Origin: Azolla caroliniana | Taxonomy: Eukaryota; Plantae; Polypodiophyta | DNA length: 64,000 nt | Reading direction: 5' to 3' | Assembly (NCBI GenBank): GCA_043228905.1 | Contig: JBHGNT010000006.1 | Coordinates: 4,402,001 to 4,466,000, forward strand | In this document: positions 13,501-60,123 of the stretch, one piece after another | Layout: each line of letters starts with the position of its first letter | Numbering within the stretch: position 1 is the stretch's first letter | Translations under genes and position numbers: made by a program | The notes under the pieces: generated by a model | Databases searched by the model: none | What the model was told of the DNA's origin: nothing | The model's input: the letters and a program-made list of their open reading frames with translations, nothing else

Positions 13501-16500
13501 CCCATGCCTTCCACACCTCGACCTACTATGGGGACACTTTTCACAACCTCTAGGGTCACGAAGGTCATAAAAAAATTACAACATAGGAAGTTCATGGACC
13601 ACACAAGATTGCGAGCCAAACACATCATATATGCTCGAGAGTGCGTAGCTCCCTTTCTACCACAGTGGACCATGAACACAATGGCCCCTATACATAAAGG
13701 AGGGGACCCCATGACCCAAATACATATAGGACCATTATGATAGGTCATATGCTCCTTAAATTATATGGTGCAGTAATGGAAGTAGAGCTCAACGATTATA
13801 TGGAAACCTTAAGTTTGTGAGCACCTATTACGGGAATGACCATATAATATCCCATGCTGAGAATTTACCGTAGTATTCTATACACGTGGATAAGTGTGAG
13901 GGTTAAACGAGAGTGTAAAGAAGGGGAGGATTACTTTTAATCCTCGTGATTGAGACAACCCATTAGGCCAAGTGTGAACTTGCTTGGGGGCCTTGGGTAT
14001 CGCTATAAATAAGAGGCCTAGCTACCCTCATTTCATGATCTTTTGACTACGTCGAGACTCTGTTCTTGTGGTGGGTCAACTCTTGTAGCAAGCGCGCTAG
14101 CACCAGATACGACTCAACGCCAGGGCGATGGTATGGGACACCAATCGAGGCTCAAGTCCGTCTCAATCCCTTCGCTCGAGGGTGGTCGAGTGGATTGGCA
14201 CCCTTCTTTCTCTCTCTCCTATCTATCTATCTATCTATCATTCTTTTATCATTATCATATGCTTACATTAGGGCATATCTCTAATAGTTGGTATCTGAGC
14301 TTATGTTTCTAATGTTTCCTTTGTTTGTTTTTGTCTTCTTGATGGATGGTGATCGATCGTCGTGCGGTTGACCTTGATCCAGATAGCGATCAGCAAAGGA
14401 ACTTCGGTAACTCTTTCTTGTTTTCTTTTATTTTTTCTTCTCCCATCTAATCATGTATATGGTCAATATGAAATTTTTTTCATTGATTCAATGATGTTGT
14501 AGTGGTAATTAATTGGTTATATAAAACATTTACATATGTGTATGACGTCAATACCTCATTTGACATATATTTAATATGTGATTAGTATCGTATGCTTACG
14601 AGGTTAATACCTCAATTGCGTATTACGACATACATATGTTACGTTTGCGTATGAGGTCAATACCTCGATTTCTATGTAAATGATATGTGTTTGGTGTCGT
14701 ATGCGTAAGAGGTCAATACCTCAATTGCGTATTACGATTAACCCTTAATTTTGGATGTTTCGTATGTGCAGAGGGTATATGCCTCAATTACGTATCTCGA
14801 CTACATCATTTTTGGCTATTTTATATTACGATTTCTTTTATATATGTATATGTGGTCACGTGTATACGTATTTGATCGTATATATGTGATAATATACATA
14901 TGTGTATATAAGTTATTACTGACAGGAACTACACGCTCCGATGAACAACGCTCGGCCACAACCGAGTCTAAAATCAAACATAGAAAAAAACGGATAATGA
15001 ACGCACGACACAAAGGAGAGAAGAGTACACAAGATGTTTAACGTGGAAAACCCTGAGAGGGAAAAAAAACCACGGGAGTTCACAGACTCCAAACTATCAC
15101 TATATCACAATGATTACAATAGTGAGCTCACGGAGGCAACGACCTCGTGCTCACGATCTTCGCCACAGGCGGCGGTTACAACAGAGGCAACGACCTCTCT
15201 ATGTCTCGAGCTCACTCTGTACACTGTTACGCACTCTCTGATCTAGCGCCAACAAGAATGACAACTACACTCTAAGTTTGCCCTAAGTCATATTTATACT
15301 AATATGACTTTTCGACTATTTACAAATGTAGCCCCGATGGACTCTCAAAAAACATATTTACGAATATGTCCCTCCATCCGGTGAGCACTCCTCACCGGGC
15401 CTGCATCATCCGGCGCTTGCCGAGTACTCCTCATCCAGTTCTCACCGAGTTTTCTGTAGCTGGGTACTCGTCATCCGATTCTCACCGGGTCTTCATCATC
15501 CAACTCTTGTCGGGTACTCGTCATCCGGTTCGCACCGGGTATGCATCATCCGACGCTTGCCGGGTACTCCTCATCCGGTTCTCACCGGGTCATCCCATCC
15601 GGAGGGACCTGTTTCCTAACAATTACGTGATTTCAATATTGAATGTTTTCCTTTTCGTGGAAAGGATCTTGGTGGCAATCCTCACATTTTTGTGAGAATG
15701 GCGTTGTCACCATCCCTTTTTCAACAAATTTTTATTGTTGACATCCCCGTTGGTAACTTCGATGTCGTTACATAATGAAACAATCTTAGGCACAATGGTG
15801 TTGAGAACGTAGGGCTTGACCCACTTGATGTGAGGTTGCTCTTATGACACACATAACCAACATCCCTTCCTCATTACATGGATACGATGCCACCATGAGA
15901 TCATTCTTACGAAAGGCATTTGTAATGACGTAGCCATGTGATGGGCCACGTGGGCCTACTACGAAAAGAGGGCTCATTTGGCTTGACCATTAGGTTGCAC
16001 TTTGGTGTTTGCCATCGTAATTACGAGACTTGAGGTTAGGTAGCATACCAACAAAGTTTGTGGTAAACAAGGGGTGAACCATCATTTGTTGTTAAGCCAT
16101 TTACGGGAGAAACAAAGGAAAGAACCGAAGAAGCAATCTGCACGTGGCTGGGCCGATGGGAGTCTCATTTTGAGCTCTATCCCACGCAAGATAGTACGAA
16201 GATTGCATATATCGGCCGAGAACTAGGGGGTAAGGCTGCCGCCTGGTGGCGTGGGCTCCGTACTTTGGAGAAATTGCCCGATACCTGGAAATATTTTGTC
16301 ACATTTTTCAAGGGCCAATTTTTGCAACCCCCCTCTCGAACTGAGAAAACACAAGCTTTAATGAACCTCGCTAGCAAGACGTTTTCCTCGCAAGAAGACT
16401 ATGTTCACCATGTTAGAACCCAAATTCAAAAATCGAATCTAGAAGGGGACAACTGGTTAATAGATTGTTTTGTCAATGGCATCCCCAATCTAGACTAATA

Positions 16501-19500
16501 CTAGATAGTGCACGATAAGGATCCAAAATCCTTCGAAGAGGCAGTTGAGATAGTTCTTTGCTATCAACACACTTCGAAGAAGAACCACAACAAACCCAAC
16601 GAAGCGCCCGGGACTAAGCAATCGCAATTCGCTAGGAAACGCAAGACACCCAACGAATTCATGGATCGCGATTGTAAGCGACAACATCCTTTTTGCGTAT
16701 TCTGCAAAAAGAAGGGTCATACAAAAGAGCAATGTCGAAAGCTCCAACGGAAAGAGCACGACATCAAAGCTAAAGTTGCGAACCATAAAGGTCATATTCC
16801 TAATGTCCTTTAGGTCTATACACATGATTTAAGTTATTGTGCAAACGGGTATATTAATGGATCTCCCGTACAATTTTTGTTTGATTCGGGAACCGCACAC
16901 AACTTTGTGAATGATCGTTTGGTTCAGATATGGGAATCCAACCCACCGTAAGTGATCATACCTATACGCTACATTTGGCGATTCATTCATTAAGAATTTC
17001 TATTGATACTTATATAGAGGAAGTAGACTTCCATGTAATGAATCTTTGTACCACTGATGTAATACTGGGTTATCCCTGGTTGTATAATAAAAACTCTTCT
17101 TTATCTTTTGATTGGGTTCATCATTCAATAACTTTTGTACTAAACAATTGTACTCATTTCATTCAACGTGTATAAAAACAATCCCTCTCAATTGTTTCCT
17201 CTCCATCAATATCCGAGTTGTCTTGTTCTACTCTATTTTATTATGTACTTGATCCAAACATTCACGTTTATAATATCGATAATGTCTCGGTTCAATTAAC
17301 ATATTTTGAACAACTAGATGAAATCTTAAATGATTTTCGTGATGTTTTTTCGAGTGAACTACCATATGGGTTATCTCCTAAACGTAATATAGACCATCGT
17401 ATAGATATTGTACCTGGCGTTGCACCAATAAGTATACCTCCTTATCGCTTAAGTCGATCCGAAGAGGATGAGGTATTTAAGTAACTCAAGGACTATTTAC
17501 GAATGGGTTATATACGTTATAGTAAATCTCCATGGGGTGCACTAGTTCTCTTGGTTAAAAAGACAGAGGGCACATGGCGCATGTGTATTAATTATTGACG
17601 CTTGAATAAAGTGACGATCAAGAATTCGTATCCATTGCCCCGGGCTGACGATCTAATTGACCGTCTCCAGGGAGCTCAGTATTTTACGAAACTTGATCTT
17701 TGTTTTGGCTACCATCAAATTCCTATAAGTGAGGACGATGTTCCAAAAACGGCATTTCGTACACGCTATAGCCATTATGAGTTTTTGTTTATGCCTTTTG
17801 GTTTGACCAATGCTCTGACTACATTTCAACAAGAAATGAATGACATTTTCTGAGAACAACTTGGAAAAATTTGTCGTTATTTTCTTGGATAATATTTTAG
17901 TTTATAGCCGTACATTAGAAGAACATGCTAAACATGTCCGCTTTGTTTTACAAACATTGAGTGACAAACAATTTTATGCGAAGATCTCAAAATGTGAGTT
18001 CTTCAAGAAATTAATGACTTATCTTGGACATCTCATAACCGAACGAAGAGTTGAAATTGATCCTTCTCAAATCGAGAAAATCAAGCTTTGGCCTACTCTT
18101 CGAAATATTCGAGAAGTTCGATCATTCCTTGGTTTTGTTGGGTTTTTGCGAAAATCCCTTCATAATTACTCCCAATTGACGACGTCGTTTACTGATCTTC
18201 TAAAAGGTCAAACACGTTGTCATGCCTTTCGGCTCCGGATCTAGGAGAAAGAAGAATATGAGATAAGACTAGTAATGAATAGGTAAAATGATAGGTAACT
18301 TATGAATCTCGTGAATCCCCACGAGTTTAGTATATTTAATCAATATCTAGATAGTAAGAGACAATTTAGATCATTCGTGAATCCCATGAATATATTATAT
18401 TGGTCAATCCTTACAAAATAATCAACAACCCATACATCTTTCTCTCCTCCTTATATAAGGATGGCAAAGGCTAAGCATAGCTTCATGCTTTTTCTAAAGT
18501 GTTCATGCACACTTAAAATGTGTATGAGTTGCCTTTTACACTATGCTTTTATTTCCTAAATATAGTGCTCATGCTCGCTAGATGTGCATGAGTAATTTTT
18601 TATTGGTGTACATTTTTCTTATAAATAAAGTATTCACGCATTCTAAACATGCATGACTTACCTTTTAATAAAGGTAGGCGTAAATAAAGGTCTTATACAT
18701 ATTAAATCTATATTTAGCACACTTAGGATAAGTTAGTACAATGATAAGGTTGGGGTTTGTCTACGTGGAGGTACAAGGTTTGAATCTTGCCCTATGCATG
18801 TAACAATATTTTCTTCTATTTACAAATTTGTCTCTACATCCAATGAGAGACTCCCACCAGCCATCTTTATCTGGCTCTTGCCGGTTCTGCTTGATCCGGT
18901 TCTTACCAGTTCTCCTTACCGGGTCCTCCTTACCGGTCCTTACTGGGTCCTCCTTGTCCCATCCGTAGGAACCAAAATGCAATTTTCACGTAGTGTGCGA
19001 ATTACACTATGACAGCGTAAGTCTACAAAACCTATGGTGTGGAATGCTACACTAGACCTCGCCTTTGAGGAACTCAAGGACCTAGTGTGCAAGGCTCCTC
19101 CACTTCTTTTACCCGATCCTTCAAAACCTTTTGAGGTTGAAAGCGATGCAAGCGATTATGCTATAAGTGTTGTCTTATATCAAGATGGTAAGCCAATGGC
19201 ATTCGAGAGTAATAAACTTGATTCTGCTCAATGTCGGTATACCGTTCAAGAAAAGGAATTATTTGTAGTTATACATGCGCTCAAAACATGACACCATTAT
19301 CTTTATGGAAATCGCTTTGTAGTAACTACGAACCACGAGTCCTTAAAATATTTTTGTAACCAATAAGACCTGAAAGGTCGTAAGGCACGATGGGCTAATC
19401 TCATCCAGGACGTTGATTTTTCCACACGATATTGTAAAGGTTCCATGAACACTGTCGCTGATGCACTAAGTCGCATCCGTGAAGTTAACATACTTAGCTT

Positions 19501-22500
19501 CACTGAAATAACATCAGATGATAGTTATTTTGTGAAATACTGGGCAAGAGTTGAGTCTAGAACAGACACCACCACATCCGCGAAGGAATACTTCCACATT
19601 GCTAACAGTCTGCTCTACCGTAATGGGAAGGTTTGTGTTCCAGATTTGCCTGAGGTCAAAAAGAGAATTCTTTTTAAATGCCATGATGCACCCTCAACAG
19701 GGCACCCTGGATTACATCGTACGGAGATCCAAAGTTTACTAGTGACTTCTGGACACAAGTCTTTTAGAAGTTAGAAACTACATGGAGCGTGAGTTCCACG
19801 GATCATCCTCAATCCGATGGACAGATAGAATGAGTAAATCAAATTATTGAGGACATGCTTCGATCATACGTTGGTACAAAACCAACAAAATGGGAACGTT
19901 ATCTCCCAATTTTGGAGTTTGTTTATAATAGCTCGAAGCATACATCGACGGGATATACATCATGTATATGTATGGTTTTCAGCCAGGAGCCCCGATTTAT
20001 GTTAATATATACATCATGATGAGTTGCGAAGTACGCAAAACTTTCTTCGGGATATGCAAGATATGTTTCATATTGCACGAGATAATATAAAAACAGCTCA
20101 AGATAGAGTGCGTTTTTATGCCGATAATCATAGGCAACCTTGTGTATTCAACCCTGGACAGAAGGTATTTTTACGTGTACCTCACAATTCTAAGACATTG
20201 TCTAAGGGTAAGTGTGCTAAGTTAGCCCCACGGTTTTGTGGACCTTTAAAGTCCTCAAATGAATTGGGTCATCAGCCTATGATCTCGCTCTCCCCGATAG
20301 TGTTGAAATTCATCCAGTTTTTAATGTGAGTCGTCTAAAAGAACTTCTAGGTTCTGGTAACAATACAGTTACAACTAAAACTCTGGTTACTTCTAAAGAA
20401 TTATCTTCTAAACCACATGTACCAAAAAGAATTCTCGATGTTAAAACAAAAAAATTACGTACTAAAGAAATCTTAGAATTTAAAATAAAATGGATGGATA
20501 AATCAATAAAAGATGCCACATGGGAACGCGAAAATACTCTCAAAACTAACTTCCCTAATTTTTCATTGCAAGAGTGCAATGTTTTAAAGAGGTGGAGTAT
20601 GTTACGGGCATGACCATATAATATCCCATGCTGAGAATTTACCGTAGTATTCTCTATACACGTGGATAAGTGTGAGGGTTAAACGAGAGTGTAAAGAAGG
20701 GGTGGATTACTTTTAATCCTCAGAATTGAGACAACCCATTAGGCCAAGTGTGAACTTGCCTGGGGGCCTTGGGTATCGCTATAAATAAGAGGCCTAGCTA
20801 CCCTCATTTCATGATCTTTTGACTACGTCGAGACTCTGTTCTTGTGGTGGGTCAACTCTTGTAGCGAGCGCGCCAACACCAAGTACGACTCGACGTCAGG
20901 GCGATGGTATGGGACACCAATCGAGGCTCAAGTCCGTCTCAATCCCTTCGCTCGGGGGTGGTCGAGTGGATTGGCACCCTTCTTTCTTTCTCTCATATCT
21001 ATCTATCATTCTTTTATCCTTATCATATGCTTACATTAGGGCATATCTCTAATAGCACCCGAGCATGCTCGCTTTAGACGAGCCTTCTCCACTATTGACC
21101 ATATCTTCACACTTAGATGCTTAATTGACCAGACGAAGTCTCACAAGAAGAAACTATATTGTTGTTTTGTAGACTTCCGCAAAACCTTTGGCACAATCCC
21201 TAGGGAGTGGTTGTTCGATAGGCTTAAAAGCCTGGAGATACCAAATGACATTATTTGGGCCATCTATGCTTTATATAAGCAAGTCTTCGAGTGCCTAAGA
21301 TGTCTTGATTAGCACCATTGGTGTAAAACAAGGTTGCCCCCTATCCTTGACTCTTTTTGGGATCTACATTGATGAGATCACTGATTTTATTGCTCGTAAG
21401 GCAAGCAACATTGTAGTCATTGAGGGTACGCAAGTTAGTCTCTTACTCTATGCAAACGACATAGTCTTGTTGTTGGAGTCTGAACATGACCTACAAAAGC
21501 ACCTTAATGCCTTAAATGACTTTTGCACAAAACGAGGATGGGTAGTGAATTTATGGAAAACTAAAGTCCTTATCTTTGACACATCTGCTTGAGTTAGGAC
21601 TATTAAATGTTACTTAACCCTCTCTCATAAACCAATTGAGGTAGTTGGACCATATGTATATCTTGGAGTCACTTTCAATGCTCGCTCAAGTAAATTTTCG
21701 ATGACACAGGCAACCGACGAAGATACTCTATCGCGAGGATATGCATCCCTCCCACTCTTAGAGAGGCAATACCACCAAGTATACTTTCAAGAGCCACGAA
21801 CTAAAGGATGGCTCTTCAACTCATTAATGACCCCTTCCCTCATGTATGCATCAGTAGTTTGTGCTCCAAGTCTACCATCTTTCATGTGGACGCAATTAGA
21901 GAGACCATTGGTGACGATGTTATCATGTCAACTCCAAAGCAAATCGATAGTACCACATGACATTATTAGAGCAAAGTTTTCTTTGCCCCCGATGTTAGTA
22001 GAAGCAATTTTCCAACTTGTCGTTTTTATTCATCGGACACATAGCCAACCACAAGATAGGATATCTCGTCAAGCTTTTGCAACATCTCGATCCCTCTATG
22101 AGTCCAGACATACTATCTCTTGGTATAACATTGTAGTGAGTTGGCTGCTTGCAAACGACCTAGACATTAATAACCTAGCTCTGCCCCTCCAAGTCTGACA
22201 TCTCATTATTTGTCCGAAACGGTGCCAATGGACAAATATTCATCATCATATATGTGGGCGACCTAGTGACTAGAGGAGCACAATAAACCGACATCAACAA
22301 CATTAAGATGCTCCTCTCCAGCAAATTCGTGATGACATAAATGAAAGAGCTCCATTAATTCTTGGGCATTGAAGTAATTCGAACCTTTGATGGCATTATG
22401 ATCTCCCGTCGCTACCCCTCTCGACCGAAACCTCAAACTGGATGCCGACTCTAGCACCACAGAGTGTGAGCCAACACACTATTGGCAACTTGTCAAAAGT

Positions 22501-31500: not shown

Positions 31501-34500
31501 TTAGTGTGAACCTTCTTAAGTATAAGAAGAATGAACTCAGGGTTTGGAGGGAAGAGGCCATGTTGATCTTTGAATCAGTCATGGTGCAAGTCATCTTTTT
31601 GGAGAACGTAAGTGAGAGAGAGCTCTTGTAACTATGGTGCATCTATTGGTCTTTGAATCAGTTATGGTAGTTATGGTGCAACTCCTCTTTTTGGAGAGTG
31701 TAAGTGAGAAAACCTCTCATAACTATGGTGCATCTATTTTGGTACAGAGTGAATAAGGCTATTTTCAGCACCTTGTATTGATTCTCTGTGCACTCACCAT
31801 TCTAGAGTATCATGTCATTGTATCAACCTTACCACTTCTTTGTTGTAGTCATGCTGTAGAAACCCTATGACAAGTATTGCATCACATAGACATGGATGAT
31901 CGACCCAATCACTTAGTTGACAAGAATATGTGGTATTTACTTAGTTATAGTTACATTGGTTGGCCGTTTTCAAAGATGAGACCATATTTTAGATGTAATC
32001 TCTCCTTCCATCTCATATGCCATTTGGTGTCTTAGAAGACAGTAATCTGCGTGTGTGTATGTGTGTTATATGATATGATTTGGGTTATCACAAAGCACAC
32101 AATTCTTTCTCTCAACACAAATGAGCTCCTAAAAGCGTTAGGATCATACAGATAGCACTGGCATTCATTCAATGTACATAGAAAGTGCCACACAACATGC
32201 TACATCTTGCTTATCACATGTAGAATTCTAATCGGTTACCCTGAGGATCACGCCCTTAACACATCTTCCTATTGCTAAATTTTACATATTCATGCATTAC
32301 CTCAGCGTGCGTTGAGCTCTAGTTGGCTCTCCATTTATAGGACCTTAGAACTCTCTTCTTCCCATGATTGATATAATGGCAAGGAGAGCCGCCAAGTGTC
32401 AATTCTCATTCCTGAACATACGCTGGAACAACTGATTCGTGTATAGTTGATTTTGCCACTCCTCATTTTCACTGAATGCATTATTTCATATGTACCCTTA
32501 TCCATCCTTTCATCAGGTTGCTCGTTTGCTATTGCCAATTAGAAAAAAAAATGTTATTTTGCAGTAAAGCTAAACTATCATTTGCGAGTAGAGTGGTATT
32601 AGTTAACCATGTTCTTTTATATATTCTTTCGTATATTATGTCATGTTGGAGTTTTTCCAAATCATGTATGGGACAGCTACAAAGATTGATCAAGAATAAT
32701 TTGTGAGTTGACAATGAAGGAAGCCATGTGAGGGCAAAGGTTTCTTGGTCCACAATTGTAAGTCATCCTATGAGGGAGGATTAGGAATTTGGTATCCATC
32801 ACAACAATCAAAAGCTTTCCTTGTGAAAATGGTGATTAGGGGATTGTTGTCGGAACCAAAACCATGCAAACAAATGTTGATGTACATATTGCAATGGTTT
32901 GTCTCAAAACTGGTGGAGATTAGAAACCCAATATTCAATGGAGTTTTGTTGAAGACAAACATATTGTTGTTTCTACAAAATGGGAAGACACATTTGCTCG
33001 ATCCGTTATTAATTCATGAAAGGATGTCTCTCTGGATTTAGTTAAACGATCTCTAAATAGAAAAGTTGAATTCTATAGACATTTGGATTTCGATTTGCAC
33101 TAACCATAGGGGACAAACACTTGGAAGTTGTACACAATGTCTGTGGGCAAAAGTATATCCAGAGCAAATACAGTCTATAGGTGCTTGGATGACATTCCTA
33201 TACTCATCAACAAATCAAGAAACATTGGTGTTTAATAAGATAAGGGGTGGAAAGACAATGTTTTCTATGATAAAAGTCATCTTTTCTAATTCTACACATA
33301 AGTGGATATGCTTCTTTACTCCATTGGATTTTTTAATTGGAGTAAGAGTGTGTCACGATACAGTGACGTAAAATACATAGTTGGTGAGGATTGAACCTGC
33401 AACCTCACGTCAGCAAGATATCATGCTCAACCATTTTGATATGAGCATAAAAAGATTCAAGGAGGTTACAAGTATTTACATTGTGAGTTGAAGTACATGC
33501 AATAGAATATTCTAGAACCTTCTAGAGGTATGTGACTAGGGAGTATAACTAGATCAATTACATTATATATAAATCCATGCTCTTATCAAAATGGTTAAAC
33601 ATGATATTTTGTTGACGTGAGGTTATAGGTTCAATCCTTACCAACTATGTATTTTATCTCACTGTATCGTGACAGAGCATAGCGCGTATATTGCGGAAGA
33701 AACTTTTATGACTTTTGATATATATGATAATGGTAGGTTAAATTTCACACACAACTGATTTGCTTTTCTTTGTTTGCAAAAGGAAGTGAGGCTGGTAGCA
33801 AATGATGGATCAAACTAGTTCTTAGATCTGAATCCACAAACGCTGAATCTTTTATGGAGATTTTGGATCATGGAAAGTAGACTAGTATCTAAGTTAACTT
33901 GGGATCCTAGAGAACTTTATTGGAAAGTGTCATTTCGAGATCAAATAAACAAAGTGCCTTTTCAGTATTCTATGAAGATTATATGCTAGGTCATGGAAGG
34001 TACAAGCCGCAAATGTTTTCTGGAAAAGAAATGGACTCTCTCCACAACAACTCAAGCAATTTTGGAAATGGTCGTAGGGCATAAAATGAGTAGGAAAGAT
34101 ATATGTTTTAGATTGTTGTTGATTCACAGAGCTATACCAATTAATAGATGAAGAAATGGGGTGAATGCAAAAAGTATACATCCTTTTTGTATGAATCTAG
34201 TGGAGACTACTAAACATTCTTTATGAAGTTGTGATTTTGCAATGGAAATATGGAAAAGAACATAAAATCTATTAATACCATAATATCCTCGAGGGAGTAT
34301 ACATGGGGGATGGTATTATGGCAGTTGTACAAGGTCAACCAATGCAAAAAGTATGTGTCCTTTTGCATGAATCTACTGGAGACTACTACTAGTAGGCATT
34401 GCATGTGGAGTTGTAATTTTGCTACAGAAATATGGAAAGGAATCTAAACATGATTAATAATAGTATACCCTCCAACAGTGTATATATTTTGGGGAGGTTA

Positions 34501-48767: not shown

Positions 48768-50543
48768 TCAAACTTCAGGTTTCTTTGCCTCTGTCTCTTT
48801 CTCTGTTGTATTGCTAGCTTTAAGAGCATCTGATAGCTTTTCATATATTTCATGCATCACACTTGTTGGTTGAATCGCCTTTTCAGACAGAATCTTGAAA
48901 GCAGCATGTTGAAGATTTGCTTTGGTAAGTGATTGAGAAATGACTAGATATGTAACATCATCTGGCACACAGTGTCTTGTTACCATCAAATCTAATATTT
49001 GAAAAGCCTCAACAACTTTCCCAGACGCACAAAGAGCACCAATATATGAAGTAAATGATTTGACACTATGACTGCATCCCCTCTCCCACATTATCGCTAG
49101 CAATTTTTTTGCTTCTTCGATTCTTAGTGCTTTGCTAAGACTCGAAATCAATGTGTTGTATATCACAACATTCCACGTGAAACCTTTCTTATCAACTGTC
49201 TTCGAGAGCTCAATTGCCTCGTCCAGCTTCCCGGCTTTACATAGCCAGTTTATTAGAGTGCCATAGGTCACGATACTTGTCTTGCATACCTTCTCAATCC
49301 TTTCCACGACAGTCTCAGCTTCTTCACCCTTTATTACTCCTTTGCAAAGATTCTCGATGATAGCATCTGAATGTATAAATGTATCCCCCACTTGCTTCTC
49401 AAACAATCGGGTTGCAGCATCCGCCTGACGTGCCTTACAAAGGGCTGAAAGCAAGGTGTTATAAATACATGCATCTGGAACTAGTCCAGTAGAATTCATT
49501 TGTTCCAAAATACTTGAACATTCATTAATTCGACCTTGTTTGCAGTAATAGTTCACCAATATGGAGAAAGACACAATAGTAGGTGAACAACCTGCTTTTT
49601 CCATATGAGTTATCATTGAGGTTGCATCATCTATCTTTCCAGCCTTGCAAAACCCATCTATCAATGTGTTAAAAGTGATGGCATTTGGTTTACAGTTATT
49701 CGATTCCATTGCTTTCATGACTTCAACAGCATTTTCAAACCTTGAAGCCCTACATAAACCACTCAAAAGGGCATTGTACAGGGCAGCATCAAGCTCAATT
49801 CTACTATCCACGGCTTCTCGAATAAGCTTTTCAGCTTCTTCGATCTTACCAACATCACAAAAACCTGAGATAATGGTTGTATAAGACACTTTGTCTGGGA
49901 AAAAACCTGCACTAACCATGCTACGAAGGACATTCAGTGCATCTTCAAGCCTTCCTACTTTAGTATATCCATTCATAAGAACACTATACATGATTTGATC
50001 GGGGGAATGTCCCATACTTAACATATCATGGAACACCTCTTCAGCTCGGTTTATATACTTAGCCTTCACAAGCCCATGTATAAGGATAGTATAAGCATGA
50101 AGAGATGGCTCCCTCTCTAAAGTCCTCATGTGTTCGAATATTCTTTCAGCTTCGATAAGCATATCCAAGCAACCATAGATTCTTATCAATTTGTTATAGA
50201 ATCTAGCGTCTCCAGACAATCCAGCATTCCTCATGTCCTCAAGGTAATGCGAGATACCTCTGATATCTTTAGATTTAGAGAGGATATCGATAAGGGCAGC
50301 ATATGATTGAGCATTATGCCTATAGTTTCTTTGTTGTCCAGCCCATCCAAAGAAACCAGTAGCAGATAATGGATTATTCATCCGTTTAAGTACATGACAT
50401 ACCAAAGAAGGTCGGATAGATGCAGAAAAAGGAGCTAATATATCTGCAAGATGTTGTGGTCCATGGAAGCCTCTCCGAAGTACATCCACAATCTCTTCGA
50501 TCTCCTTCCAATGAGAAAGACCATGTTTAAAACTCTGCTTCAT
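48768..50543 (-). CDS. P-class pentatricopeptide repeat protein, intronless, 591 aa
   Basis: FFGWAGQQRNYRHNAQSYAALIDIL lead-in followed by tandem 35-aa P repeats (PNAITFNTLIDGFCKAGKIDDA etc.). Confidence 0.9.
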   Translation of the reverse strand: MKQSFKHGLSHWKEIEEIVDVLRRGFHGPQHLADILAPFSASIRPSLVCHVLKRMNNPLSATGFFGWAGQQRNYRHNAQSYAALIDILSKSKDIRGISHYLEDMRNAGLSGDARFYNKLIRIYGCLDMLIEAERIFEHMRTLEREPSLHAYTILIHGLVKAKYINRAEEVFHDMLSMGHSPDQIMYSVLMNGYTKVGRLEDALNVLRSMVSAGFFPDKVSYTTIISGFCDVGKIEEAEKLIREAVDSRIELDAALYNALLSGLCRASRFENAVEVMKAMESNNCKPNAITFNTLIDGFCKAGKIDDATSMITHMEKAGCSPTIVSFSILVNYYCKQGRINECSSILEQMNSTGLVPDACIYNTLLSALCKARQADAATRLFEKQVGDTFIHSDAIIENLCKGVIKGEEAETVVERIEKVCKTSIVTYGTLINWLCKAGKLDEAIELSKTVDKKGFTWNVVIYNTLISSLSKALRIEEAKKLLAIMWERGCSHSVKSFTSYIGALCASGKVVEAFQILDLMVTRHCVPDDVTYLVISQSLTKANLQHAAFKILSEKAIQPTSVMHEIYEKLSDALKASNTTEKETEAKKPEV

Positions 50544-50772
50544 CAGATGAAAAGTACTTGGGAAAATAAACCCCAGACCCTCACTTTAACCCAAATTCAT
50601 CAGAAGAGAGGATCTTTCTGATAAACCAAAATGAACATTTCCCCTCCAAATACACTTCCAAAAAACCATAACTCTAATACTAAACCTAATTCACCAAAAA
50701 ACAGATCTTTCTGAGCAACCCAACTGAACATTCCCCCTCAAAATACTCTTTTCAAAACCCCTACTCCAAATT

Positions 50773-50803: not shown

Positions 50804-51599
50804 GAAACCATCAGAAACAGAGCTCCCATGTATAGCTCATCATAAAAAACCACCAGATCGCCCAAATGGCCATTTCTCCTCTCCGTGAAGGAAACCGTTT
50901 TAAAACCCCTGCAAAAAACAAGCCTACTAACTAGAGAGGGAATGGGCATGATGGAATTCTTGTGTGTTGAACCTTTGCCCTAAATCCAATGAATGTTGTT
51001 ATGGCCAGCCTAAGTATGTTGTCAATAGCTACCTTCTCGGGCCTGATACAAGCAAAGTTGGGTCGAAGGTATGTTAAGTCTCCTTGAGACAAAACACGCA
51101 CACACACATATCCCCAATAGGGAAACCCATCAATGGAATCATTGACGGCTAGATAACCAGGGCTACATAGAGAAGTTGTTGGAACTATTGAGTGTATGGG
51201 GCACACCTTTCCTTAGCAAACAAGCAAGGAATGTACACGTAGTAGGATCACGTTGTTGTTGGGCCAACAGATTGTTAGAACTTTTGTAGCAGCTCCATGG
51301 GCATCCACCCCAATGCGAACATGTATAAGCTTTTTTTTGTTGAGAATCAAACTCAACTTCCCTAGTGTGAACACCCCACCTCCTAGTATACATATAGTAA
51401 CTAGTGTGTCATAGGACCTAAAGTCCTATGGCACATATTTCATAAGTAATTAATACTCCACCTCTTTCCCAAGAGGTGGTTCTAATGAGAGAACTTAGAG
51501 AGAAGGTGACTACATAAGCACCGTCTCCTTGTCTTTGTAATTGTTGGTTGCTTCTTGTTAATATAGTTTTCTTGTTTTCTATATACATTGTGTTTTTTT

Positions 51600-51600
<1 letters not shown>

Positions 51601-51666
<66 letters not shown>
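51601..51666 (+). repeat. Compound microsatellite (CT)n(CA)n within the Copia 5' LTR
   Basis: Long CT then CA run. The 3' LTR copy (about 63153-63179) is much shorter. Confidence 0.9.
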
Positions 51667-51667
<1 letters not shown>

Positions 51668-52370
51668 CTTTTCTGTTACACATAATCACTCCTGATTCTT
51701 TACATGGTATCAGAGCGCTTGGTAGCTTGATCCAAGTCCATCTACGTGTGTTGTGCCTAAGCCCACGTTCACGAAGAACTGACTGATCACTATAGTAGCA
51801 ACATGCATAGTTCGCATCATAGAGAAGAAGAAGAAGAAGTTCAACATGAATACTCCGATGGGAGGCGCTCTTCCTACTGAGAAACTTGACAACAACAACT
51901 TCGCATCTTGGGAGTACAAGATGCACCAATACCTTGTCGGTCAAGGCTATGTGAGCTATGTCGAGGGAGCACAAGAAAATCAACCCAACCCAACACATGT
52001 CGACCACCCAACTTGGTGTCAAGACTGAGAGGGAGAAAGAGAGAGAAAAAGAGATAGAGAGATAATTGAAAGAGAATTATTATATTGAAGCGTAAAATGG
52101 ATTACAAAGAGTAGGCTACAAAATGGCGTTGAACCAATTTAGGTTTGGGATGGGTGGTAGATCCCTATTTATAAGTAATAGAGAACTCTCTAGAATATTC
52201 TAGGTTATCCTAGAATGTAGAGTAATCTAGAAGATCTCTAGAGTATTCTAGAAGGTTCTAGTGGTATAGAACACTCTAGAATATTCTAGGTCATTCTAGA
52301 ATGTAGAGTAATATAGAATATTCCTATGATATTAGATTTCATATTCTAGAGACTATATATATAAGAATAT

Positions 52371-52425
52371 TAATACAATGGTTAAGGATTTGACATGTGT
52401 ACAACAAGGTCGTGGGTTCAAATCC
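52371..52425 (+). promoter_or_regulatory. tRNA-like Pol III A/B-box module in the 3' LTR (second copy at 57757-57811)
   Basis: A-box-like TAATACAATGG(TTAAGG) and GGTCGTGGGTTCAAATCC with a perfect B box at 52415-52425, 44 nt apart. Confidence 0.6.
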
Positions 52426-52479
52426 TTTCGAGTCATAACGTGAGTGTCATTATCCTTTCGATGCATGATGTGACTGTTA

Positions 52480-55400
52480 TCATGACACTATCCCCCTTCT
52501 TCGACGACACGTCTCACGGGTCGTAGGGTTTGTATTAGGACCTGGTTTACAAGGATATTGGCGATGAAATGCATTGACGAGTTCTGCAGCATTGAAAAGA
52601 TTTGTGGCAGGTTCCCAAGTTCGATCATTGGGGGTATAGCCTAGCCAATCGACCAAGTAATACAACTTGTTGCGCACGATTTTAGAATCGAGAACGACAG
52701 CAACTTCAAATTCAGGCCCGTCCAAGAACTCGACAGGTGGTGGGGGTGTCGTAAGACGGCCCGGAATTGAACTTGTAGTATAAGGTTCCAAAAGGGATAC
52801 ATGAAACACCGGATGAAGATGCATGTGCGGAGGGAGGTCAAGACGAAATGCAACATCACTTATCTTACCAGTGATCATGTAAGGGCCAAAACGTTGGTAA
52901 TCCAATTTACTGCAAGGTCGAGTGGTCTTGATGTTGTGTTGGAGAAGCCATACATGATCCCCAATGCGGAACTTTTTTGAGGAGTCTAAACGATGACGAT
53001 CGGCAAGCCTCTTGTGTGTAAATTGAGCATCATGCAAATTGTGGAGAATGTTAGCTTGAATTTCTTGGAGGCGACTAAGACGATCCTCGGCAGCAGGGTT
53101 GGTAGGAACTTCTGGATGCGCATTCATCGTCCATCGAGGATGACAGCCCGTATTTGCGAAAAATGGGGAATATCCTGTAGAAGAATGGGCTGAGTTGTTG
53201 TAAGCGAATTCCGCCAAGTGCAAAAATGCAACCTAATCATCTTGTTGATAGTTGATGAAACAACGAAGATATTGTTCCAATGTCTGGTTGGTACGCTCTG
53301 TTTGGCCATTTGTTTCAGGATGATAGCCCGAAGAAAGCTTAACTGAAATGTGGAGAAGTTTGAACAGGTGCTTCCAAAACTTTGAGATGAATTGTGGACC
53401 ACGATCACTAATAATATCATCTGGCAGACCATGATGCTTAAATACCTCCCGCATAACGAGATCAGCCGTCTCTTGACTAGTAATCGACTTTGTACATGGC
53501 AAGAAATGTGCCATTTTGGTAAATCGATCAACCACTGTGAGAATTGCATCAAAACCTTTTGAAACTGGGAGATCAGTAATGAAGTCCAAGGATATAGACT
53601 TCCAAGGTGTTTCCGGAATGGGAAGTGGTTGTAGTAAGCCATAGGGTCGGTGACGAGGATTCTTTGATCGACAACATATATCACAACTCCGAACATACTC
53701 CTCAACAAAATGACGAAGGCGAGGCCACCAATAGCGTCGAGAAATTAATTCTAGAGTCTTGTGAACTCCAAAATGACCAGCCATTGGTGAGTCATGGCAA
53801 TGTTGCAAAACTTGTAGCCGTGGGGGACCATCAGGAACATACAATAAATTTTGTCGAAATAGAAAACCATCATGCCAATAGAACTGACAATAGTCATTAC
53901 GAGGATTTTTCGACTGTGAGCAAGAAGCACGATCCGGGACGATATGATCCAAAACATCCTTGACGAAATCATCAGTGGCCATATGATCTCGAATGGAATC
54001 AAGAAGAGTGGAATTTTCAAGAGCTGTTATGGCGTTAACTACCATTAATCGTAATCGATTAGGACCCAAAAGGATTTGTTTTTGATGCTCAAAAGCAGGT
54101 TCCCCTGGACGAAGTTCCATATAAGACCGCCGAGAAAGAGCATCTGCTTTGCCTTGCTGCATCCCAGGGCGATATATGATGATAAAGTCGAAGTGAGTCA
54201 AAAATTGCGCCCACCGGGCTTGTCGCCGACTCAAGACTCGAGCATTTTGGAAATAAGTCAGGTTCTTATGATCATTGTAGACAATGATCTGCTGAGAAGA
54301 ACCTTCTAGGAAATGTCGCCATTGTTGAAACGAATCCACGATTGCAAGAAGCTCTTTGTCATGGATCTCGTAGTTGATCTCTGCAGCTTCAAACTTTCGT
54401 GAATGAAAGGCGACAGGGTGTAGTTGTCCATCATCTCCAGTCTGCGAGAGGACACTCCCTAGTGCAAAATCAGATGCATCGGCTTCGAGGATGAAGCGTT
54501 TTGTTGGGTCGACATGTGCTAAGATAGGTGCCGTTGTAAATGCTCGTTTTAAGCTTTCGAATGCCTCGGATGCATCTAAACTCCATATAAATGGTTGATC
54601 TTTATGTGTGAGCTGAGTAAGCGGAAGCACAACCTTAGAATAATCTTTAATAAATTTTCGATAAAAATTTGCAAACCCGAGAAAACATTGCACATCACGC
54701 ACTGAAAGGGGCGTTTGCCACTCTAAAATTGCCTGTACCTTCATGGGGTCCATAGCAATACCATTTGACGATACAACATACCCCAAAAATTCCACTTGAT
54801 TCTGGCCGAAACTACACTTTTCTAATTTTGCGTAGAGACCATATTCTCGGAGTCGGCACAGTACTTGACGAACATGTGCATCATGCTCCTCTTGGGTCTT
54901 TGAGTAGATTAAAATATCATCTAGGTAAACTATAGTGAAGATATCAAGAAAATCTCGAAAAATATCGTTCGCCATATGTTGGAAAACAGCAGGTGCATTC
55001 GTGAGACCAAATGGCATCACTGTATACTCAAAATGTCCATAGCGAGTGCGGAAAGCTGTCTTCCATTCATCCCCCGGGCGAATCCGAACTAGATTATATG
55101 CTCCGCGAAGGTCCAACTTCGTGAAATATTTTGCACCACTGAGACGTTCCAAAAGATTCGGGATTAATGGTAGAGCATATCTATTTCGGATAGTCACTTT
55201 GTTTAGCCCTCGATAATCCACGACCAACCAAAGAGTCCCATTCTTCTTCTTAACGAAGAAGATAGGTGCACCAGCAGGGGATCTAGAATGTCGAATGAAT
55301 CTGTTTGCCAGATTCTCATCAATATATTCCCGCAAAGTCTCTAGCTCTACAGGGGAGAGATTATAAATTGGGCCCCATGGAGGTTCTTTCCCTGGTTGTA

Positions 55401-56124
55401 AGTCAATAGGGCAGTCATATGGCCGATGCTCCGGCAATGTATTGGCCTTCACCTTATCAAAGACATCTGAAAACTCCTTGTATTTCTCTGGTAGTTTAAT
55501 ATCCGCGTCACGTGAAGTGGATGATGGAGTTGCTACTATTGCGAAGACGAACATGGCCTCGTTCCCCCCTTCCTCCCGCAACTGTCGTAAAGAGATGGGC
55601 GATAACCCCGGGGAGCTATTAGCACATGTAGGAGAGAGGGATGCGGGATTTGTGCTTTTTTCCCGAGTCTCCTCAATTGTTCTTTTCATCCAATCAATCT
55701 TCGGGTTATGGAGTTCAAACCAGGGGAGACCTAGAACTATTGGGTGGTCCGGACTACGAATAATATTGAAAGAGATTAGGCTTGCCAAATTGCCAAGAAC
55801 TATCCTAATTGGCTCGGACTCCTCGACTATATCTCCTGATGCTATGGGACGTCCATCGATGACTCCTACGGCTACTGGGTTGGGAAGCTTATTCAAGAGG
55901 ATGTTTTGTGACAAGGCAAATTCACGATCCATGAAACAAGAGTTGGCTCCAGAATCTAGAAGGGCAGAGGCTAGGACTCGATGACATGTAGATGTGGTAA
56001 GCTCGACTTGTGCTGAAAAAACTCGACTCACTTGATTTGATGAAATGGAACCACGACTAGGAACTAACTCTACATAGCTAGGATGGTCCAGCCAAATGGC
56101 TCCTATTTTGGCCGGACTTACTCG
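52480..56124 (-). pseudogene. pol: Pol (PR-RT-RNase H-IN-chromodomain) in the -1 frame relative to gag, with one nonsense mutation at 53233-53235
   Basis: LLDSGA, YLDD, EADASDF, H-H-C-C and DDE integrase motifs, and chromodomain FEVAVVLDSK..YYLVDWLGY..DRTWEP. The frame is open from the GTTAAAC slip site. QQDD*(W) TAG is followed by the same frame. Confidence 0.9.
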
Positions 56125-57242
56125 TTTAACACATCCTCTAATTGACTCAAGACATCGAATCTATTCTCATGACATGGACTATGAGGCTTATTTATGTTAT
56201 TAGAAGTAACAATAGAACTCGATGTAGGGTTTTCATGGGCACTTACTTGGTATACTTGACGCCTAGGTTTATGTGGACAATTTACAGCTATATGTCCTGG
56301 ACCACCACAATACAGGCAGAGGTGATGCGCTCGACGTCGTTGCTTCTCAGCATCTGATAACGGCCCACGACGTTGTGTTGACTCTATTTCCATCGGAGTT
56401 GGGCCATCCCTTGTAATGGGTCTAGAAACTTGTGGAGGCGTTGCGACTACGGAAGCGTAAGTCTGTTCAGGTTGGCGGCGTAACATTTGTTGGCGCTCAG
56501 AACGTCGCTCAAATAGGCGATTATCACATCGCACAGCTCGACTAATGGCTTCTGTAAGTGACTTCGGATCTTCAGGGAAAGTAAGAAGAAGATCTTTGAC
56601 ATCATTTCTCAAACCTTGACGGAATTGATCCATTAAAGCTGCCTCATCCCAAGGGATATCGCATGCCAAGAGACGGAAATCGGCTGCATAAGACGACGCG
56701 GGACGATCTCCTTGTCGGAGCCTTCGAATCTTGTTTATCGCTGTCCTAGTGTTGTCGGTGTCTCCGAAACTAGCTTGAAACTCTTTAACAAAGGCCTCGA
56801 AATCCTCCAGCAATGGTGATTTCTTCTCGAGAAGTGGTGCGAACCATGCTAACGCCGTACCGCATAGCAAAGTTCCCACTAATCCCACACGAGCAGCATC
56901 AGTTGGATACCGATTGGGATGTAGCTGAATAACTAAACGTACTTGATTCAAAAAGCCTCGAAATAAAGACCTCGTACCATCAAACTTGGCAGGGAGGCTG
57001 ATCTTTGGCTCTCTAGGGGAGTTTTGAGCCCCCGACGCTTGCTCTCGTAATGACAATATAGTCGCCTCAAGTTGATGAACCCGCTGTGATAACTCTTCAT
57101 ATTGTTGAGCTTTTTCGGCGCTCACGTGTTGTAGATCTCCAAGTAGCCTTTGATTCTCATGCTCTAATGCCACAAATTTATTCGTCAGCATGTCGAGCTC
57201 AGAAAGAACACGCATGTATTCTTGTTTGCTCACGGACTCCAT
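56118..57242 (-). CDS. gag: Gag (sushi/PEG10-like capsid, N-terminal coiled coil, CCHC zinc knuckle)
   Basis: EPKISLPAKFDGTR..FRGFLNQVRL, GTALAWF, LRQGDRPASSYAADF, CLYCGGPGHIAVNC. Open 374-aa frame. Confidence 0.92.
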   Translation of the reverse strand: MESVSKQEYMRVLSELDMLTNKFVALEHENQRLLGDLQHVSAEKAQQYEELSQRVHQLEATILSLREQASGAQNSPREPKISLPAKFDGTRSLFRGFLNQVRLVIQLHPNRYPTDAARVGLVGTLLCGTALAWFAPLLEKKSPLLEDFEAFVKEFQASFGDTDNTRTAINKIRRLRQGDRPASSYAADFRLLACDIPWDEAALMDQFRQGLRNDVKDLLLTFPEDPKSLTEAISRAVRCDNRLFERRSERQQMLRRQPEQTYASVVATPPQVSRPITRDGPTPMEIESTQRRGPLSDAEKQRRRAHHLCLYCGGPGHIAVNCPHKPRRQVYQVSAHENPTSSSIVTSNNINKPHSPCHENRFDVLSQLEDVLNE

Positions 57243-57337
57243 AGCTGATGAGGGGAGAGGAGAAGGAAGAAGAGAACTTGTTAGGGTTTGTGGAAGACGA
57301 AGAGATGAAAGGGAAAAAAAATAAAAATTGGTTCAAA

Positions 57338-57465
57338 CTGTCAAGACTGAGAGGGAGAAAGAGAGAGAAAAAGAGATAGAGAGATAATTGAAAGAGAATT
57401 ACTGTCAAGACTGAGAGGGAGAAAGAGAGAGAAAAAGAGATAGAGAGATAATTGAAAGAGAATTA
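57338..57465. repeat. 64-bp tandem duplication of the U5 end of the 5' LTR
   Basis: 57338-57401 equals 57402-57465. Absent from the 3' LTR. Confidence 0.9.
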
Positions 57466-59520
57466 TTATATTGAAGCGTAAAATGGATTACAAAGAGTAG
57501 GCTACAAAATGGCGTTGAACCAATTTAGGTTTGGGATGGGTGGTAGATCCCTATTTATAAGTAATAGAGAACTCTCTAGAATATTCTAGGTTATCCTAGA
57601 ATGTAGAGTAATCTAGAAGATCTCTAGAGTATTCTAGAAGGTTCTAGTGGTATAGAACACTCTAGAATATTCTAGGTCATTCTAGAATGTAGAGTAATAT
57701 AGAATATTCCTATGATATTAGATTTCATATTCTAGAGACTATACATATAAGAATATTAATACAATGGTTAAGGATTTGACATGTGTACAACAAGGTCGTG
57801 GGTTCAAATCCTTTCGAGTCATAACGTGAGTGTCATGATCCTTTCGATGCATGATGTGACTGTTATCATGACACTTGGGAGCAACTGGCGAGTCGCGTGT
57901 TGTATTGCCTTGCATCATGCGTTCATGATCACATGCTTGGCTACATTCGAGAGGCCAAAACGCCAAAAGAGGCATGGGGGAAGCTCAAAAAGATATTCAA
58001 CTCTGCCAAGAGTTGAACAACATACAACTGAGTGATATGTCAATTGGCAGTTACACCTTGAAGATCAAGGAGTTGTGCGATCCCCTCGGGACGATCAATG
58101 TCAACATTGACGATGATGAAATGGTGTAGATATGCCTCGGTGGCCTAGAACCTCGGTTCAATGCAATAAGGTCAGTCGTCCTCACGAGGGAGAATCCTCT
58201 CTCCTTTGATCTCCAATCGATGCTATTAGTCGAAGAAAATCGTGTCTGAACAAGATGCAACGAATCAGACGGACAAATGCTTGACACGAGTTCATATGGA
58301 GGAAGAGGGCAAGGCCATGGAAGAAATGACCAATCAGGCCGAGGTCGAAACAACCAAAGGCAGATTGATCACAACTTCTTCTATCGGCAAGATGTCAGAA
58401 ACTCACAAGGAGGAGCATCTGGAAGAAGGGGAGCAATCATGCCGGACCAAGCTGACAAAACAATTCTGTCCAATGCAGATATTGTGGTAAAATTCGCCAC
58501 TACAAGGTAGAATGTCGCAAAAAGATGAGTGAGTCGGCCTTCACAAGCCAACAACTCACCAACTACACCTCCAACTCCGACTACGACGATCGTGGCGGAA
58601 TGTTTGTAATGAGGCACAAAGCAAACTCAATGTCAGCCTCCAACCCGACCATCACCTCCAATGCAGAAGATGTATGGTTTGTCGACTAGGGTGCATCCAA
58701 TCACATTACGTCACATAAAGATTGGTTCCGAGAGCTACGAAAGCCCAAATGACTCCGCTATGTGGAAACTGGGGATGACACAATTCACCCCATTAAGCTT
58801 GTTGGTAATGTCCAATTCGGCAAAGAGGGCAACCATACCTACATCAAGAAGTTCTTGCATGTTCCGACAATAACAAAGAATCTTGTCTCTATCGGCTAGA
58901 TTGTGGAACAGGGCATGCAAGTTCGGTTCAACGACGGAGGATGCTTCATAGAAAAGGAAGGCTGATTTATTGCTCGTGGTCGAAGAGAAGGTCAGATGTT
59001 CATTCTCGATTCTCACGTGATGAAATCAACAATATTTGCCAAAGGCCATGTAGAGCTATGGTACAAAAGGATCAGCCATATCAATATCCATAAGCTTAAA
59101 GGAATGCAGTCGAAATGGCAACATTTGGTGGTTACCAGTACTATGTGATGTTCATCGATGGCTCCTCCAGACGCACATGGATATTCCCTATGCGGCAGAA
59201 GTGTGAAGTGTTCTCGCACTTCTAGAAGTTCAAAAACGAAGTCGAAAAGGCAACCGGTCGTCATGTACGGTGCCTTCGATCAGACGACGACAAAGAGTGC
59301 TTCTCCGACGCCTTCACAACATACCTTCAATAAGAAGGAATTTGGTGGGAGTTTACTTACCAACACACACCTCAATACAACGAAGTAGCCGAATGAAAGA
59401 ACTGTCATATACTCGAGATGGCAAGGGATATAATGAATGAGAAACATCCGCTGAAATCGTATTGGACTGAAGCGGTGAACACGACCATCTATCTAATGAA
59501 TCAGTGCACAACATCCGGAG

Positions 59521-60123
59521 CATAGTACGTAAAATTCGTGTTCGTCTACTATATCATTTGTTTTCCTACGTTGGAAAACAAACACGAATGAATTCAAATA
59601 TTCATGTTTTTTTTTTTTTCCTTTTTACCTTTTTTTATTGGTTTTTTGCCTCTTTTCCCCCCTTTTCCTCTGCACATCAACGCTACGCTCTGCTCTGCTC
59701 TCCTCCCCTTTTCCCCCTTTTCCTTGAACAATCTGCTGCTTGCATCGTGCACACTAGTCAATAGTGAGTCAGTGACCACATCTTCTCCCGACCATTACTT
59801 TCTGTAATTTTTTCGTAATTTCTGTAATTTTGTTGTAATTTCTGTAATTGTTCTGTAATTTCTATAATTGTTTTGTAATTTTTGTAATTTCTCTATAATT
59901 TTTGTAATTTTGTTGTAATTTCTGTAATTTATGTTATTAAGAAGGTAATGTTTTTGTTTTGCAATTTAAAATATTTTTTTTACCTTGAAAAAATATTTAC
60001 CTTATAGTAAAAATTTATCCAAAAGTATGGTATTTATCATTCTTCGAGGGTGTTTACCCTTCTCGAATGATTGAATCATTCTCAAACACGAATGCACGAA
60101 TGGTACACATGGTTCATACTATG
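59521..60123. mobile_element. hAT-type MITE (603 bp), TIR CATAGTA, 8-bp TSD ATCCGGAG, inserted in the Copia integrase
   Basis: TSD at 59513-59520 and 60124-60131. Internal (TGTAATTT)n array at about 59803-59930. Confidence 0.88.

Follow-up and report, generated by a model that had tools for sequence, protein, structure and literature searches.

In the window (the whole 64,000-nt stretch of Azolla caroliniana DNA that we analyzed), we found a tRNA-gene-type promoter carried backwards in both LTRs of an autonomous retrotransposon. Comparison with host tRNA genes and with related elements supports the view that this module is a promoter remnant of tRNA origin, and the antisense A/B module in autonomous LTRs is a real, apparently selected feature. 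Very probably, the boxes are a Pol III-factor site of some kind that has been maintained by selection.

The carrier is a chromovirus on the minus strand, with two 471-bp LTRs that have 2 differences between them and the TSD CTTGG (Table 1). It is nested inside another element, presumably of the copia type. As the earlier note had proposed, the chromovirus is autonomous (5.86 kb, with gag-pol and a chromodomain) and self-priming, with a PBS complementary to the R start; it is also young. We call it Tcn1-like from its PR-RT-RH-IN order, C-terminal chromodomain, and R-start-complementary PBS, a likeness that is a by-eye resemblance to SM-Tcn1, our integrase tree being composed of fetched relatives only. 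In the window copy the integrase is broken by an in-frame stop (53233-53235). Self-priming is supported by the other host families in which both ends were found: the PBS and R start are complementary over 7 to 13 nt, and the bases covary. The R start/self-primer (52126-52136 and 57512-57522, minus strand) also fits the B-box consensus, in sense orientation; there is no A box at tRNA spacing ahead of this site.

Table 1. Positions in the window of the chromovirus, its parts, and the A/B module.
Feature	Position	Strand	Remarks
3' LTR	52017..52487	-	LTR pair comparison
5' LTR	57403..57873	-	LTR pair comparison
64-nt tandem duplicate of U5 end	57339-57402	-	between 5' LTR and PBS
TSD CTTGG, 5 bp	52012..52016, twin 57874-57878	.	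flanks chromovirus
Surrounding element, presumably copia-type			chromovirus nested inside; basis, its LTR pair and ORF fragments
gag	56118..57332	-	
pol (PR-RT-RH-IN-SH3-chromodomain)	52480..56160	-	gypsy order, C-terminal chromodomain
Polypurine tract (PPT)	52488..52502	-	
Pol II TATA box	52166..52173, twin 57552-57559	-	conservation 0.90
R start/self-primer	52128..52140, twin 57514-57526	-	complementary to PBS
Self-priming PBS	57325..57338	-	12-nt complement to R start
Palindromic TTCTAGAA repeats	52180..52323, twin array 57566-57709	.	6 core matches
AT-rich tract upstream of A box	52320..52370	+	between module and Pol II promoter; candidate TFIIIB/TBP landing zone
A box (tRNA positions T8 to G19), 3' LTR copy	52371..52381	+	
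Variable-loop-like AGGTC (tRNA 44-48)	52407..52411	+	adjoins B box; conserved extension
B box GGTTCAAATCC, 3' LTR copy	52415..52425	+	core conservation 0.95
Identical A/B module, 5' LTR	57757..57811	+	directed outward to flank
First T4 run downstream of 3'-LTR module	52680..52683	+	

The module lies where it had been reported, in the U3 of both LTRs at 52371-52425 and 57757-57811, and it is antisense to the element because the element occupies the minus strand. It sits at the U3 edge, between the outer LTR end and the Pol II promoter, which comprises the TATA box, the R start, and the TTCTAGAA repeats, which resemble heat-shock elements (HSE). Of 14 families, 8 have these repeats, and the A/B module persists in the 6 that lack them. 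A strict B-box pattern has only two matches on both strands of the window, and these are the two LTR copies. Our remeasurement confirmed the tRNA spacing claimed before, 44 nt from A-box T8 to B-box G52, which agrees with most host tRNA genes: the G18-to-G52 distance is 35 nt in the module and 34 to 35 nt in 61 of 71 host genes. The best local alignment of the module with 39 host tRNAs scored 57, a value that none of 1,000 dinucleotide shuffles reached, and when 5,116 tiles of the window were aligned with tRNAs, the top 3 all overlapped the module. A matrix trained solely on host tRNA genes gave it 35.7 bits (host median, 35.3), of which the B side contributed 29.2 and the A box a modest 6.6; G10 is not retained in the window's family. 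Of a type 2 Pol III internal promoter, the module has A-box T8, A14, G18, and G19, the B box GGTTCRANYC, and tRNA-like spacing. Of the captured tRNA/SINE head that had been proposed, the tRNA origin is supported; we found no SINE donor, and no TSD or tail is visible as a SINE hallmark at the module. Upstream, the AT content is 0.81 to 0.84 at 50 to 20 nt ahead of G18, compared with 0.68 farther up (25 representatives), and neither TATA-like motifs (6 of 25) nor CAA (7 of 25) are clearly enriched there.

By its distribution, the module is an old feature of the clade. A metagenome scan returned 77 related loci with best-segment integrase identities of 39 to 94%, the lowest values including degraded copies. 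We scored 65 loci, made up of 62 of these, the window, and 2 host loci, after dropping those with too little sequence past the integrase end. With the host-tRNA matrix set above the 99th percentile of shuffles, the module was antisense in 59 of the 65 and in sense in 4, and the A-to-B spacing was 34 to 35 nt in 57 of the 59 that bore it. Module-bearing loci are found on every main branch of the integrase tree. At 42 further host loci (62 to 73% identity), every integrase end scored had the module, one with the A box deleted. A pattern spanning the module matched 291 times for the window's family in the host genome (G000), and one sister subclade by itself has 2,425 near-exact modules in this genome, which makes the module relevant to Pol III biology and to tRNA/SINE annotation. 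Several metagenome families closely resemble families in the host genome, so these data give depth among co-existing families rather than a proven host range. Other Tcn1-like elements do without the module: it was not found in L126 or L148 although the LTR is present, nor by eye in the published SM-Tcn1 LTR or in the visible 5' 400 nt of the RLG1 transcript, which resembles an LTR start. The four other matrix failures were L101, which is degenerate (its sisters L099 and L100 are intact), and L129, L151, and L154, in which the LTR is broken or absent. Two unrelated LTRs in the window lack the module, and a viral contig collection held no relative of the element. A single capture by the ancestor of the chromovirus clade is the likely origin.

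Across families, the boxes are more conserved than the rest of U3, as the earlier note had asked of a functional module, in both an alignment and a pair test. For the alignment, 14 U3s less than 80% identical were selected and aligned with MAFFT without the boxes, from the 26 of 57 LTRs that reached the R start. Mean conservation in this box-independent alignment was 0.95 for the B core, 0.90 for AGGTC, and 0.86 for the A core, alongside 0.94 for the LTR end and 0.90 for the TATA box; it was low in the spacer (0.57), the AT tract (0.62), and the HSE region (0.46). In 25 independent pairs, substitutions amounted to 73/512 in the boxes compared with 915/4493 in the remaining U3 (p=8e-4) and 126/578 in the spacer (p=1e-3). 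The pair test is biased because its loci had passed the matrix, and the box-independent alignment is free of that bias. Within the A box, T8, R9, A14, G18, and G19 are conserved across families and G10-C13 drift. AGGTC retains G46 in 24, T47 in 25, and C48 in 20 of the 25 representatives. In the B box, T54, T55, and A58 are present in all 25 and C56 is present in 24, while position 57 is G in 17 and A in 8. Such G/A variation at position 57 beside fixed T54, T55, A58, and C56 is the tolerance pattern typical of a B box.

Since the autonomous elements hold this promoter backwards under constraint of TATA strength, it should do something other than what LTR Pol III promoters are described as doing. 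We favor, at slightly less than an even chance, a captured type 2 promoter kept as a TFIIIC-recruiting DNA site at the U3 edge that opens or shields the Pol II promoter in new copies. Under this proposal, a tRNA promoter captured once by the clade ancestor would then have been kept by selection as a DNA site. The module would recruit TFIIIC at the outer U3 edge, and through TFIIIC, TFIIIB would assemble on the adjacent AT-rich tract, with Pol III. The neighboring Pol II promoter would be opened or shielded in new, still unmethylated copies, to the presumed benefit of the copy in cis. Any Pol III RNA would likely be incidental and in many cases terminated early at a T4 close by, and it cannot replace the genomic RNA because the module faces outward, antisense. 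In short, the module likely binds the Pol III apparatus of the host and may help new insertions remain active. According to PMC11346459, TFIIIC sites organize chromatin, tRNA genes are nucleosome-poor, and methylation impairs TFIIIC binding. We counted against the cis model the decay of the B-box CpG in resident copies, the enrichment of T4 runs, the Tcn1-like relatives without a module, and the nondetection by Rfam. A broader version, which we put forward only tentatively and as less likely than not, is that an entire clade of autonomous chromoviruses in plants has domesticated a tRNA promoter. It would serve as a portable TFIIIC/Pol III platform that faces outward from both edges of the LTRs and allows new copies to stay transcribed in heterochromatin. 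If it is true, the clade would have a built-in Pol III anti-silencing device in thousands of copies, and the platform could compete for TFIIIC or drive Pol III into flanking host DNA.

Alternatively, selection could act on a Pol III transcript: an antisense RNA covering the integrase tail, the PPT, and the end of U3, or else a short RNA resembling a tRNA. Such an RNA would restrict copy number or enter small-RNA pathways. We regard this as unlikely. In its favor, the antisense orientation is fixed, and there are precedents in the Ty1 antisense RNA (PMC12786077) and the foamy virus Pol III miRNAs (PMC3993851). T4 runs lie nearer than chance, within 20 nt in 10 of 25 representatives (3.7 expected) and within 50 nt in 17 of 25 (8.0 expected), with the caveats that the families are related and that the PPT contributes some runs; in several families they are placed where a tRNA gene ends. 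This enrichment also fits a real small RNA. However, across families the distance from the B box to the first T4 ranges from 0 to 908 nt (254 nt in the window's family). The RNA predicted from the 3' LTR would be ~320 nt long and antisense to the U3 end, PPT, and chromodomain. For the 5'-LTR module the first T4 is at 59561, and its product would vary with each insertion site.

The structure of such an RNA is not conserved either. A functional tRNA gene was rejected: there is no cloverleaf, ARAGORN made no tRNA call on the module and at a relaxed threshold made none on 59 modules, and Rfam gave no tRNA match at E<=10 over 51500-58800, so that the covariance-model similarity to tRNA that had been put forward as a check is lacking. 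The acceptor stem is indeed absent, as had been observed (3 of 7 pairs; family mean, 3.12, compared with 3.58 when shuffled). The T stem is the sole stem above chance (3.16 of 5 pairs versus 2.07), and pairing in the acceptor, anticodon, and D stems is at the chance level or near it; searching the host genome (G000) for a pattern that requires an intact T stem gave one match, inside a tRNA array. No single tRNA isotype or anticodon is retained, there being 7 isotypes among the 25 representatives, and the parent tRNA cannot be named. One subclade has a strong hairpin (z of -4.4 and -6.3), which speaks for an RNA, but there is no fold conserved across families (swap controls not significant; mean z, -0.75 and -0.84) and no strand bias in folding (G-U 8 versus A-C 8). 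A rod hairpin between the segment after the A box and the B box looked real in the window's family and one subclade; it was rejected as a conserved structure because exchanging the 5' arms between families left the pairing just as good, with 776 of 2,000 swaps reaching the observed value. With no conserved cloverleaf, hairpin, anticodon, or terminator distance, these results point to a TFIIIC/Pol III DNA site and not to a functional RNA. The antisense regulator suggested in the earlier note is likewise unsupported as a defined regulator RNA, since neither structure nor terminator distance is conserved.

A role in integration, with TFIIIC on cDNA ends or new insertions serving as a tether to Pol III or condensin compartments that steers or aids the process, is improbable. 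The module is always near the integrase attachment end, the B box beginning 21 to 73 nt from the LTR end in module-bearing families, and Pol III factors serve targeting in other retroelements according to PMC12786077. However, the element has its own chromodomain, and a survey of 30 host copies with ~1.5 kb around each, together with 4 larger stretches, showed no tRNA gene and thus no sign of targeting to tRNA genes.

Shielding of resident copies by TFIIIC against methylation should slow the decay of the B-box CpG. We counted CpGs by hand in the sister subclade, which carries a CpG in its B box. Among the first 100 copies listed, the B-box CpG had decayed in 12 and the spacer CpG in 14, and in the 3'-LTR copies (100 of 607) the B-box CpG had decayed in 13, while two CpGs located past the PPT in the same copies had decayed in 14 and 16. 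The window's family has no CpG in its B box; the core was altered in 2 of 100 copies listed, and the flanking CpGs were altered in ~11 and ~17. Because the B-box CpG decays as outside CpGs do, most resident copies look methylated and unprotected. The anti-silencing insulator that had been proposed is therefore unsupported as a durable one, and a protective effect in young or rare copies, in the sense of a chromatin barrier, may still be compatible with these counts. C56>T occurs in ~10 of 100 resident copies by hand count and is fixed in just 1 of 25 lineages; thus, selection appears to act on reproducing copies.

We give little credence to a neutral relic of a single tRNA/SINE insertion that is merely inherited, a reading that was already disfavored. 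One capture would account for both orientation and position, relatives without the module exist, and the B-box CpG decays in resident copies. Nevertheless, the boxes match the conservation of the TATA box and LTR end while the spacer has drifted, among families with ~55 to 95% integrase identity, and the hypermutable C56 is retained in 24 of 25 representatives. Very improbable is an action in the genomic RNA, whose sense-strand complement of the module would pair with a host tRNA or the self-primer and aid strand transfer, as has reportedly been proposed for HIV-1 U3-R: the sense strand is complementary to tRNA loops, and in the window's family the B-box complement and the PBS share TTGAACC, but no tRNA isotype is tracked (7 among 25), primer pairing leaves the A box and spacing unexplained, and B-box G57 is mismatched with the self-primer A in 23 of 29 scorable loci. 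A second primer-binding site was likewise rejected.

The LTR Pol III promoters that we found described sit in short non-autonomous elements; in Cassandra the promoter drives the element itself, and for Helenus the same has been proposed. Helenus TRIMs have tRNA-derived A/B boxes in their LTRs, with an inferred function (Kojima 2024, PMC10886601). They resemble our element in having tRNA-derived sequence in both LTRs, conservation confined to boxes A and B, and no functional tRNA. They differ in being non-autonomous, 311 to 1263 bp long, and tRNA-primed, whereas the window element is autonomous, 5.86 kb long, and self-primed. In the Helenus LTRs compared, the tRNA part has the sense orientation, with transcription of the element as its proposed role, whereas the chromovirus module is antisense at the U3 edge; the chromovirus, unlike Helenus, keeps a Pol II TATA promoter, and its module cannot make genomic RNA. 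Thus, of the features that define Helenus and TRIMp3, the boxes in both LTRs are present, and the non-autonomous body of at most ~1.3 kb without coding and the sense promoter are not. Kojima 2024 (PMC10886601) argues that autonomous partners must rely on Pol II. The paper also mentions that "not a few" LTRs in Repbase look like a portion of a tRNA and that only TRIMs were pursued, so such LTRs may already have been noticed. The earlier note had not recognized the arrangement as described. tRNA-derived A/B boxes in LTRs are known from Helenus (PMC10886601), which the note did not cite. For the antisense arrangement, full-text searches outside Repbase reports and subscription journals turned up no account of autonomous chromovirus LTRs that carry a tRNA promoter in antisense. 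Cassandra and Ajax TRIMs differ in that their promoter is of the 5S type (type 1) and they are non-autonomous, Cassandra's driving its own transcript (PMC10886601 and PMC10946416).

Tcn1 is presented in PMC6317226 as a chromovirus clade of mosses and club-mosses, most members of which are self-priming. These elements share with ours gag-pol with a chromodomain, a self-priming PBS, TG..CA LTRs, and a 5-bp TSD, and no Pol III module appears in the portions searched of the published descriptions (PMC2864245, PMC6317226) or, by eye, in SM-Tcn1. For SM-Tcn1, the PBS is by eye complementary to a 14-nt LTR stretch, i.e., self-priming; the paper reports no evidence of self-priming (PMC2864245). Extra-TFIIIC (ETC) sites and tDNA barriers, whose role in chromatin does not require a tRNA product, are, like the module, B-box-centered DNA elements (PMC11346459); they are host loci, whereas the module is mobile and retains an A box at tRNA spacing. 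Foamy virus miRNA cassettes are likewise Pol III units in the LTR of an autonomous retroelement (PMC3993851; LTR location, PMC7104284), but they give structured, conserved small RNAs, whereas the module lacks a conserved fold. As a small mutable target, the module offers a way to ask what keeps chromodomain elements active in repeat-rich chromatin, and it could probe whether plant TFIIIC acts as a barrier or an activator.

Additional A/B modules were seen in the host genome and related loci. A tandem array of ~15 U3 units of the window's family (mostly 377 or 463 bp), each with the module, lies at G000:C3:23489017-23494679 (L025-L030), and the module is tandemly duplicated within the LTR at L189:607-1141, L090, and L141. 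At 33351-33675 in the window, two U3 pieces from a different and older LTR family lie head to head, each with the same outward-facing A/B module. This family has 943 candidates in the host genome, a PPT in relatives, and no pol match in 25 loci, and it is possibly a non-autonomous derivative of the chromovirus clade. A foldback donor element was considered for this stretch and rejected, given the head-to-head U3 pieces and the PPT. Degenerate tRNA-spaced A/B modules outside recognizable clade LTRs (L020:416, 503, and 57; L212:1014; L108:2963; L110:1020 and 6344; L112:2663; L063:3270) may point to further kinds of repeat or to a SINE donor. In L031-L039, L048, L067, L079, and L081, host tRNA genes and pseudogenes (Lys-TTT, Ile-TAT, Arg-TCT, and Leu-AAG) form tandem arrays. 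Elsewhere in the window are a second, distant gypsy element without the module at 13828-21055 (RT identity, 36%; LTRs 94% alike) and, at 48768-50585, a 605-aa ORF with PPR-like repeats.
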